Translations under genes and position numbers: made by a program
Assembly (NCBI GenBank): GCA_043821645.1
Contig: JBDRCO010000053.1
Coordinates: forward strand, 1-64,000
DNA length: 64,000 nt
Reading direction: 5' to 3'
Origin: Pseudomonadota bacterium
Lineage (GTDB): Bacteria; Myxococcota; JACRCW01; JAFGSX01
Notes under the pieces: model-generated
Seen by the model: the letters and a program-made list of their open reading frames with translations, nothing else
Told to the model about the DNA's origin: nothing
Databases searched by the model: none
Shown: in pieces, positions 9,345-36,494 of the stretch
Position numbering within the stretch: position 1 is the first letter of the stretch
Layout: every line of letters starts with the position of its first letter

Positions 9345-12251
9345 TCAGATGGGGCACTCCGGCGGCTTGTTGTGCACCAGGACGTCTGCCGCGAAGTAGT
9401 TGTGCACGCCGTCGACTTCGAGGTTGTAGACCGGCGCTCCCGGCTCCAGCACCTCGATTCCCAGCACCGGCTCCTCGACCAGCAAGCCCGCGGGCGTCAG
9501 CTGCAGCAGGGTATCTCCCGGCACCAGGTCTCGAGCCGGGATCCAGCGACCCCGCGTGAACAGGGGATGGTCGGCGGTCAGTTCCAGTCTGCCGTTGATC
9601 CTCAACAGCGACGAACTGGTCGGGTGCGACATCACCTCCAGCACCACGGCCACGACGACGCTCGCGTTGTGCTCATCGTAGCCCAGCACCTGGTCTCCCG
9701 GCTTGACCTCCTCGATGGCGCGCAGGGATCCATCGGCCATGCGGACGGGGGTGCGCGCAACCAGGCACGATGGTGGTACGCATTCGCCAAGCGTGCAGGT
9801 CGTGCCAGGGAACAGTTCACCACACGAGACGTAGCAGCTTCCGCAGTTGAAGCAGTTTGATCGCGTGTCGACGCAGCCGCCGCCACAACACCTCTCGTCC
9901 AGATCGCCGCAGATCTCGTTGTCACCACAGCCAACGGTCTGGGATTCCGTCTCCACCGCGGCATCGGCACAGTACGCGCCACCGCAGGCTGGCGCCGGAT
10001 TGGTACAGCTCCGAGAACGGCTGTGTTGCTGTTGCTTCGTGCAGTTGCTGCCGCAGCTCCCCACGTCGGTCCAGGAACTCCAGCTGCTCCACGCGGTCCA
10101 GCCGCCGTCGACAAGACCGCAGGCGGTCACATGCCGCACCTCGTTGGTGGTGTTCGAGGCGTCCGAGCAGGGATCTCCCCCGCAGGCCGGTGCTGGGTTC
10201 GTGCAGTAGCGCGTGCCGGTGCGGGTCTCGCTCTGGATACAGGCGTAGTACTGCTCGCAGACTCCCAGAGCGGACCAGTCTGTATAGCTGTAGTCGCTCC
10301 ACTCTCCGTCGACCCTGCCACAGTCCAGGGTGTCGCGGATCTCGGTGGTGACGGTGGAGCCCGAGCAGGTCGCGCCTCCACAGGCCGGGACAGGGTTGGT
10401 GCAGCTTCGCGTGCCGGTGCGGGTCTCGCGCTGCTTGCAGGTCACGTACTGGCCGCAGCTGCCCGTGGTGGACCACCCGGTGTACGTGTAGGCACTCCAG
10501 CCTCCGGCGACCGCGCCGCAGTCCAGGGTGTCGCGGGTCTCGATGGTAGTCGCGGAGCCCGAGCAGGTCGCACCGCCACAGGCCGGGGCAGGGTTGGTGC
10601 AGCTTCGCGTGCCTGTGCGGGTCTCGCGCTGCTTGCAGTTCACGTACTGCCCGCAGCTGCCGTCCGCAGACCAGCCCGTGTACACGTAGTCCGTCCACCC
10701 ACCCGCGATGGCGACGTCACCGGAGCACACCACCGCCTCGGTGCCCTGACACTGGTAGGAGCCGCAGGTGCCGCAGGCCTCGCCTGGCGGGTGCGCCAGC
10801 GTCGAGCAGCCGCCGCACAGGTTGGGGTTGTCGCAGCACGCGCCCGAGGCGTAGCAGTGGCCAGCGCAGTCGAGGCCATCGCAGGAACAGGCATTGTCCG
10901 TCGTCGAGCACTCCCAGCTACCGCTGCCACACTGGCTGGCGAGGCAGCAGCCCTGGCAGGCCGCGGGAGTGCCGCAGCAGTAGCCCGCGCACTGCTCCGA
11001 GCCATCCGCGGTGGCCCCATCGCAGTCGTTGTTCTTGCCGTCGCAGACCTCGAGCTCACCCGGATTAATCTCGGCATCGCCGTCGTTGCAGTCGCCGTCC
11101 ACGCAGTCGCCGCTGTGACCGCTGCTGGCGTCGTTGCAGCCCGGGGCGCAGAAGCCGTCATGGTCCGCGTCCAGGGTGTGGTGCTCGCAGCGGCCGCTCA
11201 GGCAGCTGTCCTCGGTGCAGGCGTCCCCGTCGTCGCAGGTGACCGAGCAGGCGCAGCCCGTGCCCCCGCACACCTCGCCAGGACGGCACTGCTCGCCGCA
11301 CGCGCCGCAGTTTTGCAGGTCACTGGCCAGGTTCGCGCAGTAGGCGCTGTTGCAGCACACGAGCGTGCCGCCGCAGTCGCCATTGTCGGTGCACTGGCAC
11401 AGTCCATCGACGCAGGGCAGGGTCCCCGGGCATACAAAGGCACAGCCCACGCCTGTCCCGAGCGGTCCGCAATGCTGCACGTCGCCGAGCACGTCGGTGC
11501 ACACGCCGCTGCAGCAGTCCTGGGTGGCCGGGTCGCAGCTTCCACCACCGCCGCAGGCACACTGCGCCTGCACGCACAGCTCGCCGTAGGCACAGGCATT
11601 GCCGCAGCCTCCGCAGTTGCTCTCGTCGTCAAGGACACTCTTGCACACGCCGCCGCAGTTGAGCTGTGACGGATTGCAGCAGCGCGCCGGCGACGCTGGC
11701 CCGCTGGCATCGGGCGGCCGGCAGGCCTCGCCGTCCTGGCACTCGCGGTCGCCGCACTGGCACAGGTAGCCACCGCCGAACAGCGCGATGCAGGTGGTGT
11801 ACTGCGGGCAGACGACTGCGGAGCAGGGATCCGCTGCGTCGGCCGCGCTGGACTGATCCCGGCCCTGCAGGTCGAAGGCGGCCACGTCGAGAGAACTCGC
11901 GAGATCCCGTGTTGTCGCATCGCCCGCACTGGTCTGATCGCGCACCTCGCCGTCGAGTGGGCTTGTCAGATCGGAGCCTGATCTGTCCGGCGCCGGGAGA
12001 TCCATGACCAGCACATCGCGAGCTGACGCGTCCACCGCGGAGCCCGCATCGCGCCGGGGGCGACAGACGCCCTCGCGGCACTCCTGACCGGCGCTGCACT
12101 CGCTCGAAGCGTTGCAGACCGCAAGGCACTGTCTGTCCACGCAGAGCTGATCACCCGCGCAGTCATCGTTGGATTCGCAGGGAGAAACCGCCGGCGGGCA
12201 GGAACTCAGCAACAGCGTCGTCCCCAGTGCCAGGCCCAAGAGGGTTGGCAT
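9345..12251 (-). CDS. Cys-rich lipoprotein with TSP1-like repeats and C-terminal Hint (intein-like) domain
   Basis: Lipobox LLLSSC; Cys-rich repeats; four GGW..W..C..R.R.CTNP.PACGG..C repeats; C-terminal CLVARTPV..TADHP..VYNLEV..HNYFA..LVHN. Confidence 0.82.
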   Translation of the reverse strand: MPTLLGLALGTTLLLSSCPPAVSPCESNDDCAGDQLCVDRQCLAVCNASSECSAGQECREGVCRPRRDAGSAVDASARDVLVMDLPAPDRSGSDLTSPLDGEVRDQTSAGDATTRDLASSLDVAAFDLQGRDQSSAADAADPCSAVVCPQYTTCIALFGGGYLCQCGDRECQDGEACRPPDASGPASPARCCNPSQLNCGGVCKSVLDDESNCGGCGNACAYGELCVQAQCACGGGGSCDPATQDCCSGVCTDVLGDVQHCGPLGTGVGCAFVCPGTLPCVDGLCQCTDNGDCGGTLVCCNSAYCANLASDLQNCGACGEQCRPGEVCGGTGCACSVTCDDGDACTEDSCLSGRCEHHTLDADHDGFCAPGCNDASSGHSGDCVDGDCNDGDAEINPGELEVCDGKNNDCDGATADGSEQCAGYCCGTPAACQGCCLASQCGSGSWECSTTDNACSCDGLDCAGHCYASGACCDNPNLCGGCSTLAHPPGEACGTCGSYQCQGTEAVVCSGDVAIAGGWTDYVYTGWSADGSCGQYVNCKQRETRTGTRSCTNPAPACGGATCSGSATTIETRDTLDCGAVAGGWSAYTYTGWSTTGSCGQYVTCKQRETRTGTRSCTNPVPACGGATCSGSTVTTEIRDTLDCGRVDGEWSDYSYTDWSALGVCEQYYACIQSETRTGTRYCTNPAPACGGDPCSDASNTTNEVRHVTACGLVDGGWTAWSSWSSWTDVGSCGSNCTKQQQHSRSRSCTNPAPACGGAYCADAAVETESQTVGCGDNEICGDLDERCCGGGCVDTRSNCFNCGSCYVSCGELFPGTTCTLGECVPPSCLVARTPVRMADGSLRAIEEVKPGDQVLGYDEHNASVVVAVVLEVMSHPTSSSLLRINGRLELTADHPLFTRGRWIPARDLVPGDTLLQLTPAGLLVEEPVLGIEVLEPGAPVYNLEVDGVHNYFAADVLVHNKPPECPI

Positions 12252-12494
12252 CCTGAAAGCGGAACCTCTCCTATGAACCAACATGTCGACCTCGCAGGCG
12301 CAGCGGGAACGGCAACACAAGAGATCGGTGGCAGCAAAATTATACCCCACCCGGGACCTGCGGCCCCCCACCAGATCCAAGCGCGCTTAAAAAACCGGTT
12401 CTTCATCGCGCAGGGGCTGTGCACTAGAATGTCGCCTCGAACAGTCCTCGCGGGTCAGCGGCACGCTCGCACGAGCGGCCAGGCGGAGGCGCCC

Positions 12495-13937
12495 ATGTCC
12501 ACTCGTCCGTCGTGGCTGCGCAGCGAGGACTGGATGTCGCTGTGCCTGGGTCTGTTCATCTTCGCACTGTCGACGGGAGCGTGGTTCGGCGTGGACCTGC
12601 TGGGCTGGGCCGCCAAGACCAGCGTGTGGGTCGAACTCGGCCAGGCTGTGGCGCCGGTGTCCAAGGGCGCCCTCGGCACACCGGCGTCCATCCTCCTCAC
12701 CTTCAGCTTCTTCCTGGGGCTGTTGACCCTCGCGGGCTGGGGACTGGGTGCGAAGCTCGCGCGCTTCGTGCCAGCCTTCGTCGCCATCTATGTCGTCAGC
12801 AGCCTGTGCTGGCTCGCCGGCCACTACGCCTACATCGCGGCCACACCCGACAAGCTCGCGGGTCTGGGCATCCCCTGGTCGCTCAACCTGACCGGTGAGG
12901 CCGGCTACATCCTGGCGCTGCTGGCGGGACTCGTCGTCGGCAACTTCTTCCCGCGCGGCAGCGCGGCGCTCAAGGAGGCCACGCGGCCCGAGCTCTTCAT
13001 CAAGACCGCCATCGTGGTGATGGGCGCGGGGCTCGGCGTCAAGGCCACCGAGGCCCTCGGTCTGGCCTCGGCCGTGATCTTTCGTGGCCTGTGCGCCATC
13101 GTCGAGGCCTACCTGATCTACTGGGCCGTGGTCTACTTCGTGGCGCGCAAGTTCTTCAAGTTCGACCGCGAGTGGGCTGCCCCGCTGGCGTCGGGCATCT
13201 CCATCTGTGGCGTGTCCGCGGCCATCGCCACCGGCGCCGCCATTCGCGCGCGGCCCATCGTCCCCATCATGGTGTCGTCGCTGGTGGTGATCTTTGCCGT
13301 GGTCGAGCTCATCGTGCTGCCCTTCGCGGCGCAGACCTTCTTGTACCAGGAACCCCTGGTCGCCGGCGCGTGGATGGGGCTGGCGGTCAAGACCGATGGT
13401 GCGGCCGTGGCCGCGGGCGCCATCACCGATGCCCTGATCCGCGCCAGGGCCTTGAGCGAGCTGGGCGTGCAATGGCGAGAAGGCTGGATCCTGATGACCA
13501 CCACCACGGTCAAGGTGTTCATCGATGTGTTCATCGGCGTGTGGGCCTTCGTGCTGGCCATCATCTGGTGCACGGTCATCGAGCGCAAGCCGGGTGACAA
13601 GGTGCGCCTCGGCGAGATCTGGGAGCGCTTTCCAAAATTCGTACTGGGCTACATCGGCACCTTCGTGTTGACCCTGGTCGCCTGCATCGTGTTGCCACAG
13701 CTCATCCCCGACGCCAAGGCGGCGGCCAATGAGGCCAACGTCTTTCGCCAGCTGTTCTTCGCCATGACCTTCTTCACCATCGGGGTGGTCAGCAACTTCC
13801 GCAAGCTGTGGGAGGAGGGCATAGGTCGGCTGGCCGCGGTGTACGTGCTGTGCCTGTTCGGCTTCATCATCTGGGTCGGGCTGTTCATCTCGTGGATCTT
13901 TTTTGGCGGCGTCATGCCGCCGGTGGTGACGTCGTGA
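12495..13937 (+). CDS. YeiH/UPF0324-family putative sulfate exporter
   Basis: GGAGG RBS; SEDW N-terminus; ASGISICGVSAAIATG motif; many TM helices. Confidence 0.85.
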   Translation: MSTRPSWLRSEDWMSLCLGLFIFALSTGAWFGVDLLGWAAKTSVWVELGQAVAPVSKGALGTPASILLTFSFFLGLLTLAGWGLGAKLARFVPAFVAIYVVSSLCWLAGHYAYIAATPDKLAGLGIPWSLNLTGEAGYILALLAGLVVGNFFPRGSAALKEATRPELFIKTAIVVMGAGLGVKATEALGLASAVIFRGLCAIVEAYLIYWAVVYFVARKFFKFDREWAAPLASGISICGVSAAIATGAAIRARPIVPIMVSSLVVIFAVVELIVLPFAAQTFLYQEPLVAGAWMGLAVKTDGAAVAAGAITDALIRARALSELGVQWREGWILMTTTTVKVFIDVFIGVWAFVLAIIWCTVIERKPGDKVRLGEIWERFPKFVLGYIGTFVLTLVACIVLPQLIPDAKAAANEANVFRQLFFAMTFFTIGVVSNFRKLWEEGIGRLAAVYVLCLFGFIIWVGLFISWIFFGGVMPPVVTS

Positions 13938-14119: not shown

Positions 14120-14262
14120 AGCGTCATCCCGACCCTCCTGGCGATTAATGTTTTTTATCGGAAGGCCTCCCTGATCACCGCTTTGACCATTTGACGTGGC
14201 GCGGCATGCGCAAGCGCGCTATGCTCCTGCCGGGTCGGGGGAGCACCACGAGGAGGCTCGCC

Positions 14263-14721
14263 ATGAGACTCTCTACCCGAGCACGCTACGCCCTGCGCAT
14301 GCTGCTTGAGATCGCCAAGCAAGCGCCGGACACCACAGTCAGTCTAGGCACCGTATCGCGCAACACCGACATCTCCCGTCGCTATCTCGACCAGCTGGCC
14401 ATCGCCCTCAAGAGTGCGGGTCTGGTGGTGGCGACGAGCGGTCGCGGTGGCGGCTACCGGCTGGCGCGCCCGGCCGAGGAGATCAATCTGGGGGAGATCG
14501 TCGAGGCCAGCATTGGCCCCATCAACATCGTCGAGTGCGTGGGCAATCCTGAGACCTGCGAGCGCCACGACGGCTGCATGCCACGCGAGGTGTATCGGCT
14601 GATCAACAGCCGCATCACGGGCGTCTTTCGCCAGCTCTCGCTGGCCGAGTTGACCGATCCGGATACCCTGAGCGCGCTCGTCGAGAATGAAAAGAAGACC
14701 AACACTCGCGTCCGCGCCTAG
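14263..14721 (+). CDS. Rrf2-family transcriptional regulator (Fe-S type)
   Basis: AGGAGG RBS; MRLSTRARYALR, GRGGGYRLARP; three Cys (ECVGNPETCERHDGC). Confidence 0.9.
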   Translation: MRLSTRARYALRMLLEIAKQAPDTTVSLGTVSRNTDISRRYLDQLAIALKSAGLVVATSGRGGGYRLARPAEEINLGEIVEASIGPINIVECVGNPETCERHDGCMPREVYRLINSRITGVFRQLSLAELTDPDTLSALVENEKKTNTRVRA

Positions 14722-15174: not shown

Positions 15175-15639
15175 ATGCTCCGCCTCAGCGCAGCCGCTCG
15201 ATACGGACTGAGCTTGGCCATCGAGGTCGGGCGTCAAGGCCAGGACAGCGTGCTGAGCCTGGGCGAGGTGTCGCGGCGCACGGGCATCTCACGCCGTTAC
15301 CTGGACAAGCTGGCGGCGGCCATGCGCGAGCACGCGCTCATCGTCGGCCACAATGGCCGAAGAGGTGGCTACAAGCTGGCGCGCGCCGCGACGGGCATCA
15401 CCCTGGCGGACATCATCGAGGCGACCTCGGGGCCCGTCAACATCGTCGAGTGTGTGCTCCACCCCGGGTGCTGCAAGCGTTCGGCGGACTGTCCCTGCCG
15501 TGCGGTGTACCAGGTCGCCAACGCGCGCGTGCTCGAGACCCTGAACAGCATACGGCTGAGCGACCTGGTGGAGTCCGCGCGGCAGGTGCCACACCAGGTC
15601 TGGGCCTGTCCACCGGGGATGGTCGCCAGCGTGGTGTGA
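15175..15639 (+). CDS. Rrf2-family transcriptional regulator (second paralog)
   Basis: RLSAAARYGL, ISRRYLDKL, GRRGGYKLAR; Cys cluster ECVLHPGCCKRSADCPC. Confidence 0.88.
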   Translation: MLRLSAAARYGLSLAIEVGRQGQDSVLSLGEVSRRTGISRRYLDKLAAAMREHALIVGHNGRRGGYKLARAATGITLADIIEATSGPVNIVECVLHPGCCKRSADCPCRAVYQVANARVLETLNSIRLSDLVESARQVPHQVWACPPGMVASVV

Positions 15640-15751: not shown

Positions 15752-16282
15752 ATGCGCGAGAAGAAGATCAAGAACACGACCCTGCGCATTATTCGCGATG
15801 ACATCACCCTCCTCGACGTCGATGCCTTTGTGTTCTACGCCCAGTCCGACCTCGAGTTGGGCTCCGGCGTGGGCAATGCGATTGCCCAGCGCGGGGGGCC
15901 AGCGGTCAAGGATGCACTCAAGGGCAAGGGACCTCTGTCGACGGGCCAGGCCATCGCCACCACCGCCGGCGATCTCAAGGCCTCGTTCATCGTGCACGCC
16001 ATGGGGCCGCGCTTCCAGGAAGCGAACATGGAGTCCAAGCTCGAGGCGACGATGCGCAGCGTGCTCAGCTGCGCACAAAAAAAAGGCGTCAAGCGCCTGG
16101 CGCTGCCCCCTTTAGGCCACGGCTTCTATGGTGTCCCCCTCGAGCTGAGCGCGCGTGTCACCCTGCGCGCCCTCGGCGAACACCTCAAGAACGGCAGCGC
16201 CCTGAACGAGGTCGTGCTGTGCATGACCGATGAGCGGCAGGCGCCGCCCTTCGAGAAACAGCTCGACGCACTGGTGGGATGA
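15752..16282 (+). CDS. Macro domain protein
   Basis: AGGAGG RBS; DITLLDVDA, GSGVGNAI..RGG, TTAGDL..IVHAMGP, LALPPLGHGFYG. Confidence 0.85.
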   Translation: MREKKIKNTTLRIIRDDITLLDVDAFVFYAQSDLELGSGVGNAIAQRGGPAVKDALKGKGPLSTGQAIATTAGDLKASFIVHAMGPRFQEANMESKLEATMRSVLSCAQKKGVKRLALPPLGHGFYGVPLELSARVTLRALGEHLKNGSALNEVVLCMTDERQAPPFEKQLDALVG

Positions 16283-16322: not shown

Positions 16323-17000
16323 ATGACCGACACCCTGCACTTTGCCCAGCACCGTCTGCAAGAAGGCGCGCTGATCTTCATGGCCCTGGTCTACTGCGCT
16401 CGCCTGTACTGGCTGACCCGCTTCAAGGCGGGCAAGGACAGGCAGCCGCGCACGGGCCGCCACAGCACAGATCCCCGCAAGGGCTGGATGTACTCGATGG
16501 CGATGATCGCCATGCCCTGGGCGATGGAGAGTTCCCGTCGTCACTGGCTCATTTACCTGCAGTTCGTGCTGTTCCACCTGGGCGTGGTGGCGGCCATCGG
16601 TCTCAGCTTCGTGATCCCCTACGGTCCGGGTGTGCTCACGCCTTCGGTGGTGATGGGAGTGCAGGCCCTGACAGGCGCGGCCTTCGTCATCGGTGTGCTG
16701 CGCCTCCTGCGCCGCGTGGGCTCTCCGGTGATGCGCAGGATCAGCTCCCCCGACGACTATTTCTCGCTCAGCCTGCTCACGGTGTGGTTCCTGTTCGCGA
16801 CCCTGGCCGCCCCCAACAATCTGAGCGGTGGTGAGACCACATCGCTCGTCTACTTCGTGCTCACGGCGTTCTTCTTGATCTACGTGCCCTTCAGTAAGAT
16901 CTCGCACTACCTGTACTACCCTTTCACCCGCTTCTACCTGGGGCGCAGTCTCGGCCATCGGGGCGTGTATCCCTTCGAGCGCGGTCGGCAGACCACCTGA
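16323..17000 (+). CDS. NarI/HdrE/HmcE-like membrane b-type cytochrome subunit
   Basis: Several TM helices; LFHLG, RRISSPDDY, VPFSKISHY motifs; adjacent to a CCG enzyme. Confidence 0.75.
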   Translation: MTDTLHFAQHRLQEGALIFMALVYCARLYWLTRFKAGKDRQPRTGRHSTDPRKGWMYSMAMIAMPWAMESSRRHWLIYLQFVLFHLGVVAAIGLSFVIPYGPGVLTPSVVMGVQALTGAAFVIGVLRLLRRVGSPVMRRISSPDDYFSLSLLTVWFLFATLAAPNNLSGGETTSLVYFVLTAFFLIYVPFSKISHYLYYPFTRFYLGRSLGHRGVYPFERGRQTT

Positions 17001-17039
17001 CACACGCGCTGGCGAAGCCAATTCTCGACGGAGAAGGTC

Positions 17040-18782
17040 ATGCAAAGCACCATCCGATCCCACAAGGCCCAGAAGGTCATCGAGCGCATGGGCCAGAAGC
17101 TCAACCGGCAGATCGTCGGCTCGCTGGTGGCCTGCGTGCACTGCGGCAACTGCACCCAGTCCTGCCACTACGTGCTGGCCAACCCTGACGATCCCAGCTA
17201 CGCACCGGCGGCCAAGGCCGACAAGATCCGCAAGCTGTTCAAGCATCACTACGACTGGACGGGCCGCGTGTTCCCGTGGTGGGTCAAGGGCGGCAGCGTC
17301 TACACCGACGCCGACCTCGAGGAACTCAAGGACACGGTGTTTGGCAAGTGCACCAATTGCCGGCGCTGCTCGCTCAACTGCCCCATGGGTGTGGACTACG
17401 CGACCTTCAATCGCATGGCGCGCGGCTTGCTGGTGTCCGTCGGGGTGATGCCCGAGGGCGTGGCCGTGGTGAGCAAGGACCAGTGGGAACTCGGCAACCA
17501 GATGGGGGTGCTCAAGGAGGACTACCTCGACACCCTGCAGTGGATGAGCGAGGAGCTGGTCGACGAGGTGGGAGACCCTGCCGCAGCGATCCCCATCGAC
17601 AAGAAGGGCGCGGAGATCATGTACACGATCAATCCGCGCGAGGCGAAATACGACCCCCGCTCCATTGCCGACGCGGCCAAGATCTTCTGGGCCGCGGGCG
17701 CCAGCTGGACCATGCCCAGCGAGGGCTGGGACATGACCAACTTCGGTCTGTTCTCGGGTGACGACGAGCTCGGAGGCACCGTCGCGCGGCGCGTGTACGA
17801 GAAGGCCGAGGAGCTGGGCGTCAAGAAGGTGGTGGTCAGCGAGTGCGGCCACGGCTACCGCTCGACCCGTTGCGAGGGCCCCAACTGGGCCGGCTACGAC
17901 ATGACCAGGTTCGAGATGGAGAGCTCGGTCATCACCATGCTGCGCTACATCAAGGACGGCATCATCAAGGTCGACCGCAGCAAGAACACCGAGCGCTACA
18001 CCTTTCACGACTCGTGCAACAACGCCCGCTCCTGCGGCCTGACCGAGGAACCGCGCGAGCTGCTGCGCTTGGTGACGACGGATTTTCAAGAAATGTTCCC
18101 CAACCGTGCCGAGAACTACTGCTGCACGGGCGGCGGCGGCGCCATGTCCATGGGCGAGTACACACCGCGGCGGCTCAAGTCCGGCGAGGTCAAGGCCAAG
18201 CAGCTCAGGGACACGGGGGCCGGATCGGTGGTCACCTCGTGCCATAACTGCGTCGATGGGCTGGGTGATGTGATCAAGCACTACAAGCTGGACATGAAGG
18301 TCACCCAGCTCGTCAACCTGGTGGCCGAGGCTCTGGTGCTCGAGGACAAAATCCAGGCACAGGTGCCGGCTGCCGTCGCAGTCGACAGACCGCTGGCGGG
18401 TCGAACCATCCTGGTCGTCGACGACGAGGCCGACGTGCGCACCTTCCTGCAGGCGGTGTTCGAGGACCACGGAGCCCGCGTCCTGGTGGCTGAGAACGGC
18501 AGTCGTGCCCTGGAGCTCGCGCGGCGGGAGCAGCCCGATCTGGTGACCCTGGACCTGTCGATGCCGGGTCAGGACGGCGGCAAAGTCTACCATGCGCTCA
18601 AGTCCGAGGTCGCCACGCGCGCGCTCAAGGTGTGCATCGTCACCGGCAAGCCCGAGCTGCGCAAGCTCATCTATGATCGCGAGGTGCCACCACCCGAGGG
18701 ATATCTCGACAAGCCGGTGGCCGAGGACACGCTGATCCTCAATGCGCGCAGGATCCTGGAGCTCGCGGACGAAGAGGCCTGA
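17040..18782 (+). CDS. HmcF/HdrD-like Fe-S CCG-domain protein fused to a C-terminal response-regulator receiver domain
   Basis: CVHCGNCTQSC, CTNCRRCSLNCP, ECGHG, HDSCN, YCCTGGGG, SCHNC; then ILVVDDE..PDLVTLDLSMP..LDKP. Confidence 0.88.
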   Translation: MQSTIRSHKAQKVIERMGQKLNRQIVGSLVACVHCGNCTQSCHYVLANPDDPSYAPAAKADKIRKLFKHHYDWTGRVFPWWVKGGSVYTDADLEELKDTVFGKCTNCRRCSLNCPMGVDYATFNRMARGLLVSVGVMPEGVAVVSKDQWELGNQMGVLKEDYLDTLQWMSEELVDEVGDPAAAIPIDKKGAEIMYTINPREAKYDPRSIADAAKIFWAAGASWTMPSEGWDMTNFGLFSGDDELGGTVARRVYEKAEELGVKKVVVSECGHGYRSTRCEGPNWAGYDMTRFEMESSVITMLRYIKDGIIKVDRSKNTERYTFHDSCNNARSCGLTEEPRELLRLVTTDFQEMFPNRAENYCCTGGGGAMSMGEYTPRRLKSGEVKAKQLRDTGAGSVVTSCHNCVDGLGDVIKHYKLDMKVTQLVNLVAEALVLEDKIQAQVPAAVAVDRPLAGRTILVVDDEADVRTFLQAVFEDHGARVLVAENGSRALELARREQPDLVTLDLSMPGQDGGKVYHALKSEVATRALKVCIVTGKPELRKLIYDREVPPPEGYLDKPVAEDTLILNARRILELADEEA

Positions 18783-18856
18783 GCAGCGCCACAGCTCGGC
18801 GAATGTGGGACCGCGCCGGGGGGAGCGCCGCGTGTGAGGAGAACAAGGGGGGGACG

Positions 18857-20281
18857 ATGCCACTCGACTACGCAGCCCTGTTCGAGCAGATGCCCTGTTA
18901 CCTCACTGTTCAGGACAAGTCGCACGCCCTGCTCGCGGCCAACACGCGCTTCGTGCAGGATTTCGGCTCCATCGAGGGACGCACCTGCTACCAGGTGTAC
19001 AAGCAGCGCTCGGAGCCCTGCGAGCAGTGTCCGGTGCAGCGCAGCTTCGACGACGGGCGCCCGCATCGCTCGGAGCAGCAGGTCATCGCCCTCGACGGCC
19101 AGCCCCGGACCATGATCGTGTTCACCCAGCCCATCCGCAACGGCACTCCGGAGGTCGCGCAGGTGCTGGAGCTGAGTGCCGATATCACCGAGATCAAGGC
19201 CCTGGAATTACAGCTGCGCGACAGCAAGCAGCGCCTGCGCGCCCTGTTTGACGAGGTGCCCTGCTACGTGTCGATCCAGGATCCCGAGCTGAACGTGGTC
19301 GAGGCCAACCAGCGCTTCAAGACCGCCTTCGGATCCTGCCTCGGGCTCAAGTGCTTCGAGGTCTACAAACACCGCGACGAGGAATGCATGAGCTGCCCGG
19401 TGCAGCAGACCTTTGTCGACGGCCGGTTGCACCACAGCGAGGAGGTGGTGACCTCGCAGCAGGGCGAGCAGATCCACACCCTGGTCACCACGGCCCCTCT
19501 TCTCGACGAGGCCGGCCACATCGTGCAGGTGATGGAGATGAGTGCCGACATCACGCCCATCCGCCGCCTGCAGTCGCAGCTCGAGTCCATCGGTCTGCTC
19601 ATCAGCAGCATCTCCCACGGCATCAAGGGCTTGCTCACCGGCCTCGACGGCGGCATCTACATGGTCAACAGCGCCCTCAACAACAACAAGCCCGAGCGCA
19701 TGCAGCAGGGCTGGCAGATGGTGCTGCGCAACGTCGACCGTATCCGCAGCATGGTGCTCAACATCCTGTACTACGCTCGGGAACGTGAGCCGCAGTACGA
19801 GGCGGTGGATCTGAAGGGGCTGCTCGACGAGGTGGCCGAGGTCATGCATCCCAAGGCATGCGAGCACAACACAACATTCCAGATCGAGGTGGCGTCGTCG
19901 TCGGGAGCGCTGCTGGCTGACCCGCGCGCGTTGCGGGCGCTGATCGTGAACCTCGCCGAGAACTCCGTGGATGCCTGCCGCGTGGACAGCAAAAAGGACA
20001 GCCACGTGGTGCAAGTACGCGCCCAGGGCACCTCGTCCGAAGTGCAGATCGTCGTCGAAGACAACGGCATAGGTATGGATCGCGAGACGCGCGAGAAGGC
20101 CTTCAGCCTGTTCTTCTCGTCCAAGGGTCACGAGGGTACGGGGCTGGGCCTGTTCATCAGCAACACCATCGCTCGAGCCCACGGAGGCCGCATCGAGGTC
20201 GATTCCGAACCGGAACGTGGCACCTGCTTCCGGGTGCTCCTGCCCCGCGCGCATGCGGCCGTTGCAAAGGGGGGAGCATGA
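18857..20281 (+). CDS. Cytoplasmic sensor histidine kinase with two Cys-containing PAS domains
   Basis: Two PCY..C-x10-C-x2-CP PAS units; H-box SHGIKG; NSVDA, DNGIGM, GTGLGL. Confidence 0.9.
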   Translation: MPLDYAALFEQMPCYLTVQDKSHALLAANTRFVQDFGSIEGRTCYQVYKQRSEPCEQCPVQRSFDDGRPHRSEQQVIALDGQPRTMIVFTQPIRNGTPEVAQVLELSADITEIKALELQLRDSKQRLRALFDEVPCYVSIQDPELNVVEANQRFKTAFGSCLGLKCFEVYKHRDEECMSCPVQQTFVDGRLHHSEEVVTSQQGEQIHTLVTTAPLLDEAGHIVQVMEMSADITPIRRLQSQLESIGLLISSISHGIKGLLTGLDGGIYMVNSALNNNKPERMQQGWQMVLRNVDRIRSMVLNILYYAREREPQYEAVDLKGLLDEVAEVMHPKACEHNTTFQIEVASSSGALLADPRALRALIVNLAENSVDACRVDSKKDSHVVQVRAQGTSSEVQIVVEDNGIGMDRETREKAFSLFFSSKGHEGTGLGLFISNTIARAHGGRIEVDSEPERGTCFRVLLPRAHAAVAKGGA

Positions 20282-20655
20282 GCCTCACCATCCTGGTCGT
20301 TGACGACGAACCCGATATTCGGGCCTTCCTGAGCATGCTGTTCGAGGACCACGGCTACACCGTGCACAGCGTCGAGAATGGCAAGCTGGCGTGGCAGCAC
20401 GTACAGCGGCAGCGACCTGACCTCATCACCCTCGACGTGGCCATGCCCGAGCAGAGCGGCGTGCGCTTCTTCCGGGACATGAAAGAGAGCGAGAGCTTTC
20501 GCGACATCCCCATCATCCTGGTGACGGGTGTCGACGACAAGTTCGAGAGCTTCATCTCCAGCCGGCGCCAGGTTCCTCCTCCCGAGGGCTACCACCGCAA
20601 GCCCATCGTGCGCGAGCACCTGCTCGAACAGGTGCGCCAGCTCCTCGGTGCTTGA
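20278..20655 (+). CDS. Single-domain response regulator
   Basis: ILVVDDE, PDLITLDVAMP, RKP; ATGA overlap with the kinase. Confidence 0.9.
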   Translation: MSLTILVVDDEPDIRAFLSMLFEDHGYTVHSVENGKLAWQHVQRQRPDLITLDVAMPEQSGVRFFRDMKESESFRDIPIILVTGVDDKFESFISSRRQVPPPEGYHRKPIVREHLLEQVRQLLGA

Positions 20656-20777: not shown

Positions 20778-23540
20778 ATGCCAGAAACCAGCGCGCTGCC
20801 AGACTGGGTGTCCTGGCTCGTCGTGCTTGTGGCCATCGTGCTCGGCCTGTGGCTGCTGCGGCTGGTGCTGGTGTTGCTGAACCTGCTGCGTCACCTGCTG
20901 CAGCGGCCCGCCTACCGGAAGGTCCACGAGGGGAGCTGTCCGCCCTGGGTGCTCGAGGGCCTGCAGCCTGTGATCGCGGAACTGCAGGAGCGGGGCTTCG
21001 AGCTGCAAGGCTGGCTGGGGGTGCGCCGCCTGTTCGCGGTGGCGCGCGACGAGGTGGTGCGGGCGCTGCTGCGCGCCCCCGATGGTGTCACCTGGTGCAC
21101 CGTGGGCTTTGCGGACCTGCCCGACCCCCTGCACCTGTTCCACGTGGTGTTCACCAGCTTTCTCGACGACGGAACGGCCCTGTTCACGGTCAACGGCACG
21201 CGCCACACCGTGGTGGGCGAGATCCCCGACGTGCGGCTCGAGGACCCCATGGCCCTGGATGCCACGGCGCAGTGGCAACATCACGCACGCACCCTGGCTG
21301 CGATGCCGGAGCGTCGGGCACAGCGCGCGGATAGCGTCGACGCTCTGCTGGGGGCCTTGCTGCGCGCCGAGAACCGCTACCTCGACGAGATGCTCAAGCG
21401 GGGCTGGCTGGTGCCCGCAACGCAGCCCGATCGCTTTCGCTTCAGCCTGGTGGCGGCGAGTGCCGGTGCCTGGCGCATCCTGCGCGGGCAGGGTGCGCTG
21501 ACCAAACTGCGGCAGCAGCGGGCCGCGGCGCTGCGCGCGCGCACGCAGGCTCCGCTCCGGGTCCCGGTTGAAGAAGAGGCCGGCGCCTTCGCCGACATCG
21601 AAGTCATCCGGCACACGCCCTCGCCCCGCAGCTTCTGGCTGGCGCTGTTCGGCTCCAGCCTGATCCTGTTCATGCTCGCGGCCACGCGCTGGCTTGATCC
21701 GAACCTGGTGTGGATGGTGGCGGCTGCAGTGCTGCTGCACGAGCTGGGGCACTACTCGGCCATGCGCGCGTTTGACTACAACAACACCGCCATCTTCTTC
21801 GTGCCCTTCTTTGGCGCCGCAACCTCGGGCAGCAAGCGCGACGCTCCTCTGTGGCAGGAGCTGCTGGTGCTGCTGGCGGGGCCGGTGCCGGGCCTGGTCC
21901 TGGCTGCGGCCGTCCTCGGATTGCACAGGCCCGAGGCGGGAAGCAGCCTGCACGAGCTGCTGTCCATTCTCATCGTGCTCAACCTGTTCAACCTGCTCCC
22001 CATCTTCCCCCTCGACGGGGGACGGGTGGTGCACCGCTTGCTGTTTGCCCACAACCGGGTGCTCGACGCCGGGTTCAAGTTGCTGGCCGCGGGGGCTTTT
22101 CTGGGGCTGGGGCTGGCGAGCAACGACGGTCTGATGATCGCGCTGGGCGTGTTCGTGGTGATCGGAATCCCGACCAGCCTGCGCCTGGCGGGTCTGCAGA
22201 GGCGTCTGGGGCGGCGACGCCAGGACGATGGTGAGGCTTCGCTGACGCCACGCCTGGTGTTCGAGGTGATGCAGGAGGCCGGGCAGGGCAGCATGCCCTT
22301 CGCCGTCCGGGTCCAGCAGGCGCGCGCTTTGCTGGAGCAGGGGGGCGGGCGCGAGCGGCCCGGTTGCCTGCCGGCCCTGGGCTGGCTGCTGGTGTACGGG
22401 CTGAGCGTGCTTGGAGCGGGGGCGCTGCTGCTGTGGCTGTTCCTCGGCAGTGGCGCAGGCAGCTCCACGCCGTCGTCGAGCATCCCGGCGCTGGACACAC
22501 CACCCGTCGCCATCGCCTGTCCGGCGGACGCCGAGGTGGCCTGGGGCTTCTGGCGTCACCGCCCCGTCGAGGAGGCCGTCTCCCGGAGCACTGTCCACCT
22601 GTGGATGATCGCAGGCTTCGACAGCGCCGCAGTGGCCGAGGCAGGCGGGCGCGCGATGACCGCGGAAGCCCCCCCGCGAGGTCTGCTGCGTTTCGAGAAC
22701 CTCTTGCTGTGGCAAAGGAACGAGGCCCCCGGCCCCACCGACCTGCCGCTCGGCCTGCTGGAGCCCGGGCTCGAGTCTCTGGGCGCGCGAGTGATGACGC
22801 AGAGCGTCTCCGACGACGAGGGGAGCCTGGTCGAGCTGCGATGCACGCCGCGTTCCGCCGCGCAGCGGGAACAGCTTGTGCGCGAGCTGCAGGATCACTT
22901 CGCGGGCCCCCCGGGCGGCTTCCTGCGCCCGCCCTGGTGGCCCCGCGAGGGCCAGGAGACATTGCCCCGGGCGCAGCAGGATGCGCGTCGCGCCTATCGC
23001 GAGCTGAACGAGGCCACCACCGCGGCCCTGATGGAGTCCACCACAGGCCTCACCTCCTGGCGCGGGACCGTGTCGCTGTGCCTGGCGAGCGACGACGCCG
23101 CGCGCCAGGAACAGATGCTGCAGTGGATGGAGGAGCACAGGCAGCGCAGGCTTCGCGCGGCAGAGCAGTACCTTCAGGCGCACCAGGACGAACCAGGTTT
23201 CGACGCTGGCACCGTGGAAATCTACATGCGCGCGCTGCGCGTCCCGCCGGGTGACGTCGGGGCCCAGCAACAGCTCCAGCGCGAGCTCGCCGAGCGCATG
23301 GGCGCCCTCGCGCTGGTGACCACGGGCGAGGGGCCGCCACAACCCGCGGCCGAAGCCATGGCGCGGTTGATCTGGGCCATGCCCGTCGACACCGAGGGAG
23401 GGACCCTGCGCCTGACGGCGCTGAGCATGGCCAATCCGCAGGCTGCCTTGCCCTCCCTGCTGTCCTACCTGTGCGCCCGTGGTTGCCACGATCTCGAGCT
23501 CCGCCACAGCGGGGACGCGCTGCAGGGGGAGGATCCCTGA
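20778..23540 (+). CDS. Site-2 protease (M50) family protein with N- and C-terminal extensions
   Basis: HELGH zinc motif, LAGP, NLFNLLPIFPLDGG. Confidence 0.8.
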   Translation: MPETSALPDWVSWLVVLVAIVLGLWLLRLVLVLLNLLRHLLQRPAYRKVHEGSCPPWVLEGLQPVIAELQERGFELQGWLGVRRLFAVARDEVVRALLRAPDGVTWCTVGFADLPDPLHLFHVVFTSFLDDGTALFTVNGTRHTVVGEIPDVRLEDPMALDATAQWQHHARTLAAMPERRAQRADSVDALLGALLRAENRYLDEMLKRGWLVPATQPDRFRFSLVAASAGAWRILRGQGALTKLRQQRAAALRARTQAPLRVPVEEEAGAFADIEVIRHTPSPRSFWLALFGSSLILFMLAATRWLDPNLVWMVAAAVLLHELGHYSAMRAFDYNNTAIFFVPFFGAATSGSKRDAPLWQELLVLLAGPVPGLVLAAAVLGLHRPEAGSSLHELLSILIVLNLFNLLPIFPLDGGRVVHRLLFAHNRVLDAGFKLLAAGAFLGLGLASNDGLMIALGVFVVIGIPTSLRLAGLQRRLGRRRQDDGEASLTPRLVFEVMQEAGQGSMPFAVRVQQARALLEQGGGRERPGCLPALGWLLVYGLSVLGAGALLLWLFLGSGAGSSTPSSSIPALDTPPVAIACPADAEVAWGFWRHRPVEEAVSRSTVHLWMIAGFDSAAVAEAGGRAMTAEAPPRGLLRFENLLLWQRNEAPGPTDLPLGLLEPGLESLGARVMTQSVSDDEGSLVELRCTPRSAAQREQLVRELQDHFAGPPGGFLRPPWWPREGQETLPRAQQDARRAYRELNEATTAALMESTTGLTSWRGTVSLCLASDDAARQEQMLQWMEEHRQRRLRAAEQYLQAHQDEPGFDAGTVEIYMRALRVPPGDVGAQQQLQRELAERMGALALVTTGEGPPQPAAEAMARLIWAMPVDTEGGTLRLTALSMANPQAALPSLLSYLCARGCHDLELRHSGDALQGEDP

Positions 23541-23576: not shown

Positions 23577-25640
23577 ATGGATCCCGTCGTGGCACCGCTG
23601 ATTCCTGTTCGCCTTCGCGACAGCCTCTTCGTCGCGGCCAGTGCATTTCTGGCCCTGGTCCTGGCTCTGCGCCTGCACGGCCTCACCACGGCGCTGCCTT
23701 ACTACTTCGCCTACGACATGGACTTCGTGACCTCGCTGGACGCGTTGTTCCTGCACTCGCAGCTGCTGCCCGACCACCTGTGCCACCCTGGCTTCGGCAT
23801 GAATCTCATTCTGTGGCAGGGCACGCGCTGGCTGCACGCGCTCGGCCAGCTCAGCGCCCTGTCCCTCAGCGACGTCGAGCAAAGCCTGAATCCGCTGGCG
23901 CTGATGGCCGAGCACGCCGAGGCGGTGCGGCTGTTCGGGCCGGCAGCGGTGTTTGCGACGGCGGTGTTGCTCAGCCTGGCGCTGTGGCGCCTGCTCGACC
24001 TCGAGCGCTGGTGGGTGCTGGCGATCTTCGTCCTGGTGGGCTGGCAGGCCTCGTCGTCCTTCCACGCAGCCATGCTGCGCACCGAGTGCTTCGCAGTGCT
24101 GTGGTGGAGCGCGGCGCTGTGGGTCGCGGTGGAGGCGGGGCGCGCCCGTCGACGCGGGTGGGCGGTGGGCGGGTTGCTGCTGACGGGGCTGCTGCTCGGG
24201 GTCAGCTTCTTGACCAAGGTGCAGGGCGTGTTCTTTCTGGCCGCGGTGCCTGCCTGGCTGGCCCTGGCCACGCTTCGGCACCAGCGCTGGGATGCGGCCT
24301 GGTTCGAGCTTCTACGTCGTCGCAGCGCGCTCGTGGCGACGGGGGTCACCGCGCTGCTGTCCATCGGCTTCGTGGGTTTGACCCATGCGGCCCAGCGCGC
24401 TGAGGTGCCGAAGGGCATCCTGACCTGGGCCACGAGCTGGGGGCGCACACCGCTGTGGTGGGCGTGCGCCGCTGTGTGTGGTGCGCTGGTGCTCGCCGGG
24501 GCCGTGGCCGCGGTTTGGCCGCGCGCTCGTCGCACGCTGCTGCCTGTGCAGGTGGTCGGCGCCCTGCTGGCGTCGGGCGTGTGCCTGAGCCTGCTGCTGC
24601 ACCTGGTGATCTACGACGAGCTGGCCCTGGGCTGGCGCTACCTGCTGCTCGACTTCAAGTTTGCACTGCTGCGCCACAGCGATCTGGTGCGGGTTCCGAC
24701 GTGGACCGGGGCCTGGGCCACCCTGTCCTCGGTGGTGAAGGCCAGTCCTGGCCCCTTCGTGCTGCATGCCGTCGCCCTGCTGGTGCTGATCGCAACGCGC
24801 TGGCGGCGCTGGTCCACGACAGCCTGGGCGGCGCTGGGGATCGTGATCGCACTGATCGCACTGGCCCTGCTGCAGATCGCCATCGCCACCAGGGTGTCGA
24901 GCAAGGACCTGGTGTGGCAAGAGACACTGCTCAACCTGGGCACGCTGCTCGCGCTGGGAATGCTGTGGAGCGATCTCGTGGTTGCGTCCCGACGACCGCG
25001 GCTGGTCGTGGCCTGCACCCTGGGTCTGCTGGTGCTCCTCAACGTCCGCGCCGGGCAGGCGAGTGCCGCCAGCGTGCAGCGAGCCGGGCCCTACTACTGG
25101 CAGGAGTGGGTGTGGCTCCGCGGGATAGGAAAGTACGAGGGCAATCAGCGCAGGTACAAGAAGCTGATGGGTCGTCGCTACCCCGATGCTGCGGACCGCG
25201 TGCTTAAGGATACGGCTCGCGAGCACGCCTTTCGCTTGCAGCTGGCGCGCGCCACACTGCCAGACCTGGCGCTGGACCAGCGCTCGCTCGGCGTCCTGGC
25301 CACCTCGCAGCCAGCCCTGCGCAGCGATCTGGCGCTGCAGCAGATCGAGGGCCCGCGTGGCTGGCGTGGCAGCGTGCTCATCGACGTGTCGGACCTGCTG
25401 GACACCCGCGGCGCACGACGGCTGCGCGTGACGGCGCGGGCGGACGCTGACGTGATGCTGCTCGTCGACGACACAGCCTGGTCTGCCGCGACTTCGCGGG
25501 ACGTGGAGCCCAGCCCGGAGCGGCTCGTCCTCGGGGACGGGCCCCGAGGTCACGAGCTGAAGGGACTGTGGGTCACAAAATCCTGCACGGTCCAGCTGGC
25601 AGGCAGTGGACCCGTGCTGGTCGCGGTGCGGAGACGCTGA
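23577..25640 (+). CDS. Polytopic membrane protein (possibly GT-C glycosyltransferase-like)
   Basis: Many TM helices; YDMD..HPG loop, LRTE and LTK motifs typical of GT-C folds. Confidence 0.55.
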   Translation: MDPVVAPLIPVRLRDSLFVAASAFLALVLALRLHGLTTALPYYFAYDMDFVTSLDALFLHSQLLPDHLCHPGFGMNLILWQGTRWLHALGQLSALSLSDVEQSLNPLALMAEHAEAVRLFGPAAVFATAVLLSLALWRLLDLERWWVLAIFVLVGWQASSSFHAAMLRTECFAVLWWSAALWVAVEAGRARRRGWAVGGLLLTGLLLGVSFLTKVQGVFFLAAVPAWLALATLRHQRWDAAWFELLRRRSALVATGVTALLSIGFVGLTHAAQRAEVPKGILTWATSWGRTPLWWACAAVCGALVLAGAVAAVWPRARRTLLPVQVVGALLASGVCLSLLLHLVIYDELALGWRYLLLDFKFALLRHSDLVRVPTWTGAWATLSSVVKASPGPFVLHAVALLVLIATRWRRWSTTAWAALGIVIALIALALLQIAIATRVSSKDLVWQETLLNLGTLLALGMLWSDLVVASRRPRLVVACTLGLLVLLNVRAGQASAASVQRAGPYYWQEWVWLRGIGKYEGNQRRYKKLMGRRYPDAADRVLKDTAREHAFRLQLARATLPDLALDQRSLGVLATSQPALRSDLALQQIEGPRGWRGSVLIDVSDLLDTRGARRLRVTARADADVMLLVDDTAWSAATSRDVEPSPERLVLGDGPRGHELKGLWVTKSCTVQLAGSGPVLVAVRRR

Positions 25641-25655: not shown

Positions 25656-26033
25656 TCAGTCCTTGAGCAGCGCCTCGAGCTTCTTGAGGAGCTCGTTCTT
25701 GTCGACGGGCTTGGAGAAATAAGCATCGGGAGGCGGCACCTGGCGGCGGCTGGAGATGAACTGCTGGAACTCCTCCATCACGCCGGTGACCATGACCACG
25801 GGGATGTCCTTGGTCTGGGCGTTCTCGCGCACGTCGCGGTAGAAGCGCACGCCGGACTTCTCGGGCATGGTGATGTCCAGCATGATGAGGTCAGGCTTCT
25901 CGCTGAGGACCTTGTGCAGACCCTCGACGCCATCATGGGCTGACGCGGTGGAGTAGCCATTGTCCTCGAGCAGGGACACGAAGTAGGTCACCAGGTCCTT
26001 GTCGTCGTCAATGACGAGAATCTTCTTTGCCAT
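25656..26033 (-). CDS. Single-domain response regulator
   Basis: AGGAG RBS; KKILVIDDD, PDLIMLDITMP, FSKP. Confidence 0.9.
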   Translation of the reverse strand: MAKKILVIDDDKDLVTYFVSLLEDNGYSTASAHDGVEGLHKVLSEKPDLIMLDITMPEKSGVRFYRDVRENAQTKDIPVVMVTGVMEEFQQFISSRRQVPPPDAYFSKPVDKNELLKKLEALLKD

Positions 26034-26069
26034 GGCCGCTCTCCTTTCAGGGGGCGTTGGGGGCCCCGC

Positions 26070-26153
26070 GTCGCCGGGAGTGCATCCCGTCGACATCACC
26101 CCGCCAGCACCTGTCGCCGGGAGTGCATCCTTTCGAGGTCACCCCGCCAACAC
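26070..26153. repeat. Intergenic tandem duplication (2 x ~41 bp, period 43)
   Basis: gtcgccgggagtgcatcc-N-tcaccccgcca(g/a)cac at 26070-26110 and 26113-26153. Confidence 0.85.
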
Positions 26154-26170
26154 AGGTTCGAAAACCGAAC

Positions 26171-27772: not shown

Positions 27773-27807
27773 GGGCGTCTTCTCCTGCGGGTGTAGCGTC
27801 GACGTGC

Positions 27808-32339: not shown

Positions 32340-32345
32340 GACGTG

Positions 32346-32474: not shown

Positions 32475-32483
32475 CGCGATCTC

Positions 32484-36465: not shown

Positions 36466-36494
36466 GTCATGGCCTTTCGCTGGTTCGAACGCCC

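Follow-up and report, generated by a model that had tools for sequence, protein, structure and literature searches.

The DNA analysed here (the window) is a stretch of 64,000 nucleotides (nt) from a Pseudomonadota bacterium placed by GTDB in the Myxococcota (JACRCW01; JAFGSX01), and corresponds to positions 1 to 64,000 of contig JBDRCO010000053.1 of assembly GCA_043821645.1. Seven genes on the plus strand between 14191 and 20655 were assigned with Pfam and NCBIfam: two Rrf2 genes, a macro gene, a NarI-type gene, a 580-amino-acid (aa) fusion, a histidine kinase and a lone receiver. The fusion joins an HmcF/HdrD-like iron-sulfur (Fe-S) protein with a CCG domain to a response-regulator receiver domain in a single chain (CCG::REC). 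A preliminary description of the sequence had placed it between a NarI-type membrane subunit on one side and a kinase with two PAS domains plus a stand-alone receiver on the other; this setting was recovered, with the macro and Rrf2 genes lying upstream. The features are as follows.

14191–14721, plus strand: Rrf2-family transcription regulator, copy 1 (PF02082 111.9 bits; TIGR00738 113.9 bits); its start is probably later than 14191 because the Pfam match begins at aa 27.
15175–15639, plus strand: Rrf2-family transcription regulator, copy 2 (PF02082 96 bits).
15752–16282, plus strand: macro-domain protein, which opens the core conserved in the window's subfamily, subfamily A (PF01661 83.6 bits).
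16323–17000, plus strand: NarI-type (HmcE/TmcC-like) integral membrane subunit (NCBIfam HmcE 48.2 bits and TmcC 46.2 bits, both below cutoff).
17040–18350, plus strand: HdrD-like catalytic part of the fusion, aa 1–437 (Pfam, NCBIfam and cysteine motifs).
18351–18401, plus strand: linker from the CCG part to the receiver, aa 438–454, variable in length and sequence.
18402–18782, plus strand: C-terminal receiver, aa 455–580 (PF00072 64.1 bits; D461, D462, D505, T535, Y555 and K558).
18803–20281, plus strand: soluble histidine kinase with two PAS domains of four cysteines each (Cys4-PAS) and phospho-His H272 (Pfam PAS_4 twice, HATPase_c).
20278–20655, plus strand: REC2, a single-domain DVU0259-like receiver (PF00072 78.4 bits), the start of which overlaps the kinase stop.

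The open reading frame (ORF) at 17040–18782 on the plus strand was open throughout its 580 aa, and the HdrD-like part ran in frame into the receiver, as had been claimed. Pfam matched Fer4_8 at aa 30–118 (41.5 bits), CCG/PF02754 at aa 320–404 (38 bits, cutoff 20.6) and Response_reg/PF00072 at aa 457–566 (64.1 bits, cutoff 30.2). Residues 9–439 matched three NCBIfam models end to end, namely TmcB (321.5 bits), HmcF (319 bits) and DsrK (252.8 bits), each below its equivalog cutoff (735, 750 and 400, respectively). In trees of CCG proteins the fused clade was separate from the window's own DsrK-like and TmcB paralogues. The catalytic part carried two CX2CX2CX3C ferredoxin-type motifs (C32, C35, C38, C42 and C104, C107, C110, C114), one complete CCG motif of the noncubane catalytic cluster type (C326, C332, C361, C362, C401, C404) and S-E-C269-G-H, which is the T/G-E-C-G-H cysteine motif. 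All 16 of these cysteines, C269 included, were invariant in the alignment of 68/68 fused and 9/9 shorter orthologues. According to PMC10861901, DsrK, HmcF and TmcB share the xECGH cysteine, and catalysis probably depends on it. The best structural match of the catalytic part in Foldseek was Mycobacterium smegmatis EtfD (9ojn; E 2.1e-12 over 467 columns), followed by LutA. A phmmer search of the PDB with the CCG part likewise returned 9ojn (E 6.6e-12), plus just two marginal matches to ferredoxin motifs.

The receiver residues named in the preliminary description were all present: DDE at 461–463, the phospho-Asp D505 within TLDLSMP, T535 and K558-P559. Among 68 fused sequences, D461, D462, D505 and K558 were invariant (68/68), position 535 was T in 63 and S in 5, and position 555 was Y or F in all 68. 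Since every residue for phosphotransfer is present and invariant, the domain was classed as a canonical receiver and not a pseudo-receiver. An AlphaFold2 model of the full-length fusion, built from the 68-row alignment, had a mean predicted local distance difference test (pLDDT) score of 81.2 and a predicted template modelling (pTM) score of 0.65. The receiver was modelled with a (beta-alpha)5 fold at pLDDT 91–98 in nearly all blocks (two blocks at 78–82), and matched RR468, PhoB and DivK in Foldseek. The linker fell below pLDDT 50 at aa 438–447, the minimum of conservation (0.48) was at aa 441–460, and the fused proteins ranged from 571 to 616 aa in length. A complex prediction of the CCG part (aa 1–437) with the receiver (aa 450–580) from 68-row alignments, run without controls, gave a score of 0.29 (mark 0.32), which speaks neither for docking nor against it.

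The fusion was found far beyond this assembly. A search of 5.8 billion proteins was evaluated for its best 120 clusters (119 besides the window's own): PF00072 together with Fe-S domains occurred in 120/120, PF02754 was listed in 119, and the 119 others were 562–610 aa long and 72–83% identical to the query. One-genome-per-species scans yielded 342 relatives of the window's fusion and 110 relatives of P0124, a fused protein 50% identical to it, the search with which added 79 new loci. Locus counts for subfamily A refer to the best 80 of the 342 relatives, and 81 sources means these 80 loci and the window. A complete orthologous ORF was present in 76 of the 80 loci, and four ran off the contig. 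The in-frame fusion was present in 67 of the 76 and seven were without any receiver; in the remaining two, L046 and the N-containing L039, the receiver was out of frame. The fusion also recurred in a second, more distant clade (clade B, below). The junction at about 18340–18400, a stretch singled out in the preliminary description, was spanned by Logan contigs of two studies with zero differences and zero indels; X1, which may be from the very sample that the window came from, covers 18113–18779, and X2 covers 18298–18458. Of the grounds named in the preliminary description for refuting the fusion, the two open to computation, restriction to this assembly and lack of sequence support at the junction, did not apply. 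No RNA data set was listed as covering 17900–18900, and two metatranscriptome runs from the study of X1 had no contig on 16300–20700, which is uninformative on expression.

All carriers seen were metagenome-assembled genomes (MAGs). Their lineages include the Zixibacteria, Ignavibacteria, Planctomycetota, Acidobacteriota, Gemmatimonadota and Myxococcota, which were recently recognised as dsrAB-bearing. The statement that no description of such a protein was known stood as far as the literature searched goes: neither a CCG/HdrD-like protein fused to a receiver nor the cassette was described there, most subscription journals lying outside the search. The proteins themselves, however, were already in databases under generic names ('response regulator', 'Fe-S oxidoreductase/CheY-like').

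The gene order around the fusion was nearly fixed: macro, NarI-like, CCG::REC, Cys4-PAS kinase and often a lone receiver. In loci with enough sequence, the NarI-like gene was directly upstream of the CCG gene in 75/75 and the macro gene upstream of the NarI-like gene in 72/73. The kinase followed the fused gene directly in 60/62 fused subfamily A loci; only in L019 and L021 do a further small kinase and receiver come in between. A lone receiver on the same strand followed the kinase in 39/53 loci. Neither kinase nor REC2 was found within about 6 kb downstream in 7/7 receiver-less subfamily A loci. Of the neighbours for which the preliminary description had suggested a synteny test, the NarI, macro and kinase genes proved conserved, and Rrf2 occurred in 21/81 sources. 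The upstream regulators depended on lineage: sigma-54/PAS activators were seen in nine loci, and 16 loci had an HTH_17 protein that matches receivers weakly. The HTH_17/MerR-like protein, of about 255 aa, replaces Rrf2 about 2.1 kb upstream of the CCG gene (loci include L017, L018, L020, L023, L055, L057, L063, L064, L072, L074, L082 and L085); its receiver match of 22–24 bits is below cutoff, and the kinase may have in it a partner that binds DNA.

The NarI-type protein had no Pfam match. Its H85 and H195 were each kept in 75/76 sequences and aligned with histidines of the window's true TmcC; the protein is presumed to be the haem-b, quinol-oxidising partner of the CCG subunit. The kinase had been described as rich in cysteines in its PAS region. 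Four cysteines were found in each PAS domain with the spacing C-x29-C-x10-C-x2-C, conserved across orthologues (53–54 of 58 sequences; C32 in 37/58). The kinase start may be 18857 because conservation among orthologues begins at M19. A PDB sequence search with the PAS region of the kinase gave no match. A redox-sensing [4Fe-4S] cluster in a Cys-conserved PAS domain is reported for Desulfovibrio vulgaris OrpR in PMC8359166, and by analogy the Cys4-PAS domains probably hold a metal or Fe-S cofactor that senses redox state, O2 or sulfide. Against the NF045717 model (DVU0259 family, cutoff 160), REC2 scored about 95.8–97 bits and the fused receiver 69–73.2 bits. Pfam detected no DNA-binding output domain in the fused receiver or in REC2.

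The macro protein retained conserved glycine ligand loops and one conserved cysteine, C157 (67/73). It has YAQS where TTHA0132 has NAAN, and the Asp of GGGVD is missing (GSGVGNAI). NAAN and GGGVD are MacroD-type catalytic motifs. No longer protein containing the macro protein was found at E <= 1e-10, which is weak evidence against macro fusions. Within the same literature scope as above, no link between a macro gene and dsr was found, and nothing on DVU0259.

Three clades were distinguished among the relatives. Clade A, that of the window, has the order macro, NarI, CCG::REC and kinase and is mostly fused. Clade B (21 loci) often has Rrf2, then NarI, CCG::REC and kinase, and has no macro gene; 18 are fused and three are short, split or frameshifted. 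Clade C (45 loci) consists of NarI and CCG genes, none of them fused. The fused proteins of clade B were about 50% identical to the window's, and clade C comprised its closest unfused relatives at 58–63% identity. The clade B loci with a fused receiver also carried the kinase and were mostly without REC2. P0124 and P0125, the two CCG+REC matches obtained with the receiver of module 2 (an unfused set of genes described below), were considered as an independent fusion involving the DsrK-like paralogue of that module, and this was rejected: they are distant members of the same fused family, with 49–50% identity over the full length.

The CCG tree had the form (B,(A,C)), with supports of 96 for B, 100 for A, 100 for C and 90 for A with C, the root being two long paralogue branches. 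The receiver-less A forms were nested among fused ones, and six changes were needed on the tree. In the receiver tree, 63 module-linked receivers stood apart from 10 other receivers of this genome, with a support of 95 in the Shimodaira-Hasegawa-like approximate likelihood ratio test (SH-aLRT), and 22 fused receivers of A and 15/18 of B fell in one clade (SH-aLRT 98). The simplest history suggested by these sequences is one old fusion followed by repeated loss, a history in which confidence is limited by the root and by the short receiver alignment. Phylum labels were mixed on the tree (29 changes, minimum 14), which fits horizontal spread. Because the core persists in the receiver-less A forms and in the wholly unfused clade C, control by the two-component part seems to have been laid over a module that works without it.

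A link to the chemistry of DsrC had been drawn in the preliminary description, and it was supported both by co-occurrence with dsrA and by DsrC genes beside the closest unfused relatives. dsrA was found above its curated cutoff in 46/50 subfamily A carrier genomes and was present in 19/21 clade B genomes (18 above cutoff, one in two pieces). Among 41 relatives of the window's genome, which are not independent samples, five had dsrA, and the cassette was present in 4/5 dsrA-positive versus 0/36 dsrA-negative genomes. Six A loci (L037, L039, L060, L065, L079 and L083) had dsrA or dsrB in the flanking sequence retrieved, and in the B loci L106 and L114 dsrAB came directly after the kinase. In L037 and L039 the cassette is flanked on one side by dsrC or dsrB and on the other by the remainder of the locus, with a DsrC gene just upstream of the macro gene. 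A DsrC gene was present in 29/45 clade C loci; in 17 of these it followed the CCG gene at a distance of no more than 100 nt, and in three it immediately preceded the NarI gene. All 27 of the clade C DsrC tails read, and both of those from L037 and L039, ended in the complete arm with two cysteines, C-x10-C-V. By these DsrC neighbours and dsrA counts, the HdrD-like clade is tied to DsrC through gene order and the fused forms to dsrAB through co-occurrence. From the DsrC genes that adjoin its unfused relatives, this HmcF/TmcB-like clade appears to work with DsrC.

The genome has a canonical cluster on another contig, comprising dsrA, dsrB, a DsrN-like amidase, dsrC and dsrMKJOP. The dsrA, dsrB, dsrC and dsrMKJOP genes all scored above their own family cutoffs (DsrK 734.6 bits), and given this complete cluster the cassette is accessory.

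Two separate observations concern these dsr genes. A GltD-like NAD(P)-binding protein lies between dsrB and the DsrN-like amidase in the canonical cluster (contig C81:1-16000, L173). It may be DsrL; if so, the reductive or oxidative direction is not settled by gene content alone. In clade C (L119–L172), MAGs without dsrA carry an operon of NarI-like, CCG and DsrC genes, a DsrC-dependent module outside sulfite respiration.

The cassette was compared with known systems. DsrMK of DsrMKJOP, a menaquinol:DsrC-trisulfide oxidoreductase (PMC10861901), likewise pairs a NarI-type membrane subunit (haem-b, as presumed for the cassette) with an HdrD-like cytoplasmic subunit, and shares two ferredoxin-type clusters, one CCG motif, the xECGH cysteine and genomic linkage to dsrAB/dsrC. 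It differs in that the fusion scored 252.8 bits on the DsrK model (cutoff 400) compared with 734.6 for the genome's DsrK, and in that the cassette is without DsrJOP partners and has a macro gene, a kinase of its own and a receiver at the C-terminus of the fusion. HmcEF and TmcBC of Desulfovibrio are the best-scoring models, both for the CCG part (TmcB 321.5, HmcF 319) and for the membrane part (HmcE 48, TmcC 46), although the scores of the CCG part are below half of the equivalog cutoffs. Unlike these complexes, the cassette has no periplasmic cytochrome or other subunits, and its receiver is within the catalytic polypeptide and not a separate gene. Beside the hmc redox genes, a single-domain receiver (rrf1) and an Rrf2 regulator (rrf2) are encoded, and TmcABCD of Desulfovibrio has the neighbouring regulators DVU0258-0260. 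Response regulator and kinase genes adjoin tmc and hmc in D. multivorans and D. vulgaris (PMC5109826).

EtfD of M. smegmatis (9ojn) is the closest solved structure to the Fe-S/CCG part, at 18% sequence identity, but its membrane domain is fused in the one chain and it is without a receiver. EtfD takes electrons from ETF. CheB, PleD, CheV and hybrid kinases resemble the fusion in having a canonical receiver covalently joined to an effector that does not bind DNA; here, however, the partner is a respiratory Fe-S enzyme, and the chain contains no kinase or CheW domain. The receiver is N-terminal in CheB and PleD and C-terminal in hybrid kinases and CheV-type adaptors. Cytoplasmic Cys-conserved PAS domains like those of the cassette kinase occur in other regulators of anaerobes, as described for OrpR (PMC8359166) and NreB (PMC13478379). 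OrpR uses C52, C61 and C65, whereas the cassette kinase has two domains with C-x29-C-x10-C-x2-C and cofactor binding is predicted.

We favour, with moderate confidence, the reading that the cassette encodes an accessory reductase of the menaquinol:DsrC-trisulfide type, the cytoplasmic subunit of which is switched by phosphotransfer from the adjacent kinase; the phosphotransfer, the substrate and the effect on activity are presumptive. The reading starts from what was observed, namely the architecture, the conservation of catalytic and phospho-acceptor residues, the co-inheritance of receiver and kinase and the linkage to dsrAB/dsrC. The NarI-like (16323–17000) and HdrD-like (17040–18782) proteins would form a two-subunit module of the DsrMK/HmcEF/TmcBC type and, by analogy with DsrMK, would connect the menaquinone pool electronically with a thiol/trisulfide substrate in the cytoplasm, for which DsrC is the most probable candidate. 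Through a cofactor of its Cys4-PAS domains the kinase would sense redox state, O2 or sulfide, and it would phosphorylate REC2 as well as D505 in the fused receiver. Phosphorylation of the tethered receiver would then raise or lower turnover at the CCG site or the coupling to a partner. In this way, the cell could open or close an accessory electron route to DsrC within seconds, beside a constitutive DsrMKJOP. Also presumptive are which way the electrons flow, whether the switch activates or inhibits and by what mechanism, and what the kinase senses.

Several points weigh against this reading. Control by the receiver is dispensable, since subfamily A lost the domain at least six times and clade C lost it throughout. 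The invariant macro gene has no place in the model. No dsrA was found in 4/50 A and 2/21 B genomes, which are MAGs and may be incomplete. Of 29 clade C genomes searched for dsrA, six had it and 23 (Aminicenantes-type and others) did not; as these 23 have DsrC, a DsrC partner alone does not mean sulfite respiration. The pTM of 0.65 and the disordered, length-variable linker indicate no fixed interface between receiver and enzyme. Zero columns of the CCG part were at least 90% conserved in fused proteins and yet changed in most of the seven receiver-less forms, a small sample; loss of the receiver therefore left no visible scar of a docking surface. On the DVU0259 model, the fused receiver (73.2 bits) was barely above the next receiver of the genome (70.6 bits). 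Response regulators that control enzymes do not typically have the receiver C-terminal to the partner domain, and the best solved structural relative, EtfD, is an electron-entry enzyme and not a disulfide reductase.

The alternative that survives best, although we regard it as unlikely, is that the module is mainly a sensor. The NarI-like/CCG part would read the redox state of menaquinone or DsrC and alter the uptake or loss of phosphate by its own receiver. Kinase, fused receiver and REC2 would, with the same low likelihood, form a branched relay or phosphate sink with output in transcription (Rrf2, HTH-receiver or sigma-54 regulators) or through another protein. In its favour, hybrid kinases and CheV-type proteins also carry the receiver at the C-terminus, a DNA-binding output domain is absent from both the fused receiver and REC2, and transcription regulators lie nearly always just upstream, their type varying by lineage. 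Deletion of rrf1-rrf2 in D. vulgaris reportedly raises hmc expression, which also counts for a sensor. However, those upstream regulators are not conserved across lineages, and there is no Hpt domain or second kinase to pass a signal onward. Fused and unfused proteins alike retain the catalytic cysteines with the strictness seen in the enzymes, and the core occurs without signalling genes in seven A loci and in clade C, there in an operon with DsrC like a working enzyme. A regulated enzyme was preferred to a sensor on three grounds: full conservation of the catalytic residues, survival of the core in loci that have no signalling genes, and the joint gain and loss of receiver and kinase.

Less probable still is that the module does not act on DsrC at all. 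It would instead serve EtfD-like electron entry to the quinone pool, or reduce another disulfide, possibly nucleotide-bearing, recognised by the macro protein; the link to dsr would then, just as improbably, be one of shared habitat or gene island only. The top structural match to EtfD (9ojn), the scores below the DsrK, HmcF and TmcB equivalog cutoffs and the unexplained near-invariance of the macro gene in subfamily A (72/73) speak for it, and NCBIfam and Foldseek place CCG domains in LutA, GlpC and TfrB too. Yet DsrC genes with the complete arm lie directly beside the closest unfused relatives (58–63% identity), and the cassette is found amid dsrC/dsrB in L037 and L039, directly before dsrAB in L106 and L114, and in none of the 36 dsrA-negative relatives. 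Clade B, moreover, has fusion and kinase without any macro gene.

We give little credence to a fused receiver that is merely a tether or phosphate sink, which would recruit the kinase to the membrane complex or drain REC2, with REC2 as the true output and catalysis unaffected. On the DVU0259 model REC2 is closer to the stand-alone module-linked receivers (95.8 bits) than the fused receiver is (73.2 bits); in addition, the fusion has a long, disordered linker, and there are two receivers for one kinase. REC2 is nevertheless less constant (39/53) than the kinase (60/62) and mostly absent from clade B, and all switch residues of the fused receiver, including the T/Y pair, are kept across two subfamilies. 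An assembly or frameshift artefact joining two genes, to which the few orthologues with the receiver out of frame or as a separate ORF (L039, with N, L046 and L102) might point, is ruled out with near certainty by the 67/76 fused orthologues, the 120/120 clusters and the junction contigs.

The window holds three HdrD-like modules, each with a Cys4-PAS kinase and a DVU0259-like receiver. Besides the cassette, the related features are as follows.

25656–28767, minus strand: module 2, unfused, with a NarI-like gene (27808–28767), a DsrK-like CCG gene (26171 to about 27600) and a DVU0259-like receiver (25656–26099).
29086–30846, plus strand: second Cys4-PAS histidine kinase, divergent from module 2, identified by its domains and a Cys motif at aa 242.
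30850–38482, minus strand: Tmc/Hmc-like operon with TmcC (37838–38482), TmcB (36495–37810), a kinase (31215–32339) and a receiver (30850–31230).

Module 2 scored 322 bits on DsrK (cutoff 400), 29 bits on Nitrate_red_gam and about 110.8 bits for its receiver on NF045717; this receiver is a separate gene 72 nt downstream of the DsrK-like gene. The Tmc/Hmc-like operon also holds a large multihaem cytochrome c, a Fer4_11 Fe-S protein and an NrfD protein, and scored 247 bits for TmcC (cutoff 240), 115 and 579 bits for the pieces of TmcB and 135.4 bits for the receiver. The strict Cys4-PAS motif matched only this contig in the 7.07-Mb genome. When 101 receiver matches of the genome were ranked on the DVU0259 model, the top four were all in the window (134.8, 110.6, 95.8 and 73.2 bits).

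To our knowledge, little is known of the regulation of dissimilatory sulfite reduction, and the small receivers beside tmc and hmc genes have gone unexplained for decades. The fusion could tentatively be taken as a Rosetta stone. The stand-alone receivers beside tmc, hmc (rrf1) and dsrMK-like genes would be direct, protein-level switches of HdrD-like subunits, Cys4-PAS kinases would respond to redox state or sulfide and choose by phosphorylation which of several membrane modules feeds DsrC, and the macro protein would add a nucleotide input of the ADP-ribose type. This extension is speculative and we hold it possible but doubtful. If true, it would mean post-translational routing of respiratory electron flow in sulfite/sulfate reducers across more than a dozen phyla. 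The fusion itself, conserved in hundreds of species, clearly exemplifies the physical union of a two-component receiver with an Fe-S enzyme of respiration. It offers genomic evidence for DsrC as the substrate of the HmcF/TmcB-like clade and suggests a role for the orphan receivers next to hmc and tmc genes. The cassette may also affect how sulfur cycling by uncultured dsrAB-bearing groups responds to redox change.

Some further observations were made on the window and its relatives. Similar pairs of paralogue and receiver occur near the cassette elsewhere, for example in L019, L021, L035, L079 and L083. The TmcB gene at 36495–37810 is split by one frameshift near 37500, so that NCBIfam positions 2–87 and 86–429 fall in different ORFs; this is either an assembly error or a pseudogene. 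Two membrane proteins are encoded on the plus strand between the cassette and module 2, one of 920 aa (20778–23540) with a Peptidase_M50 match of 51 bits, and a multi-pass protein of 687 aa (23577–25640) with no Pfam match. Upstream of the cassette, a 1011-aa, Cys-rich, repetitive protein is encoded on the minus strand at 9345–12380, and its C-terminal stretch resembles the Hint/intein type, as judged by eye from the translation. The next gene in the window is listed in the same way as those above.

12273–13937, plus strand: YeiH/PF03601-family membrane protein of a putative sulfate-exporter family (Pfam PF03601 77.5 bits).

This YeiH/PF03601 gene is a loose but recurrent neighbour of the cassette, found also in L011, L046, L060, L065, L069, L079, L155, L158, L159, L164 and L167.

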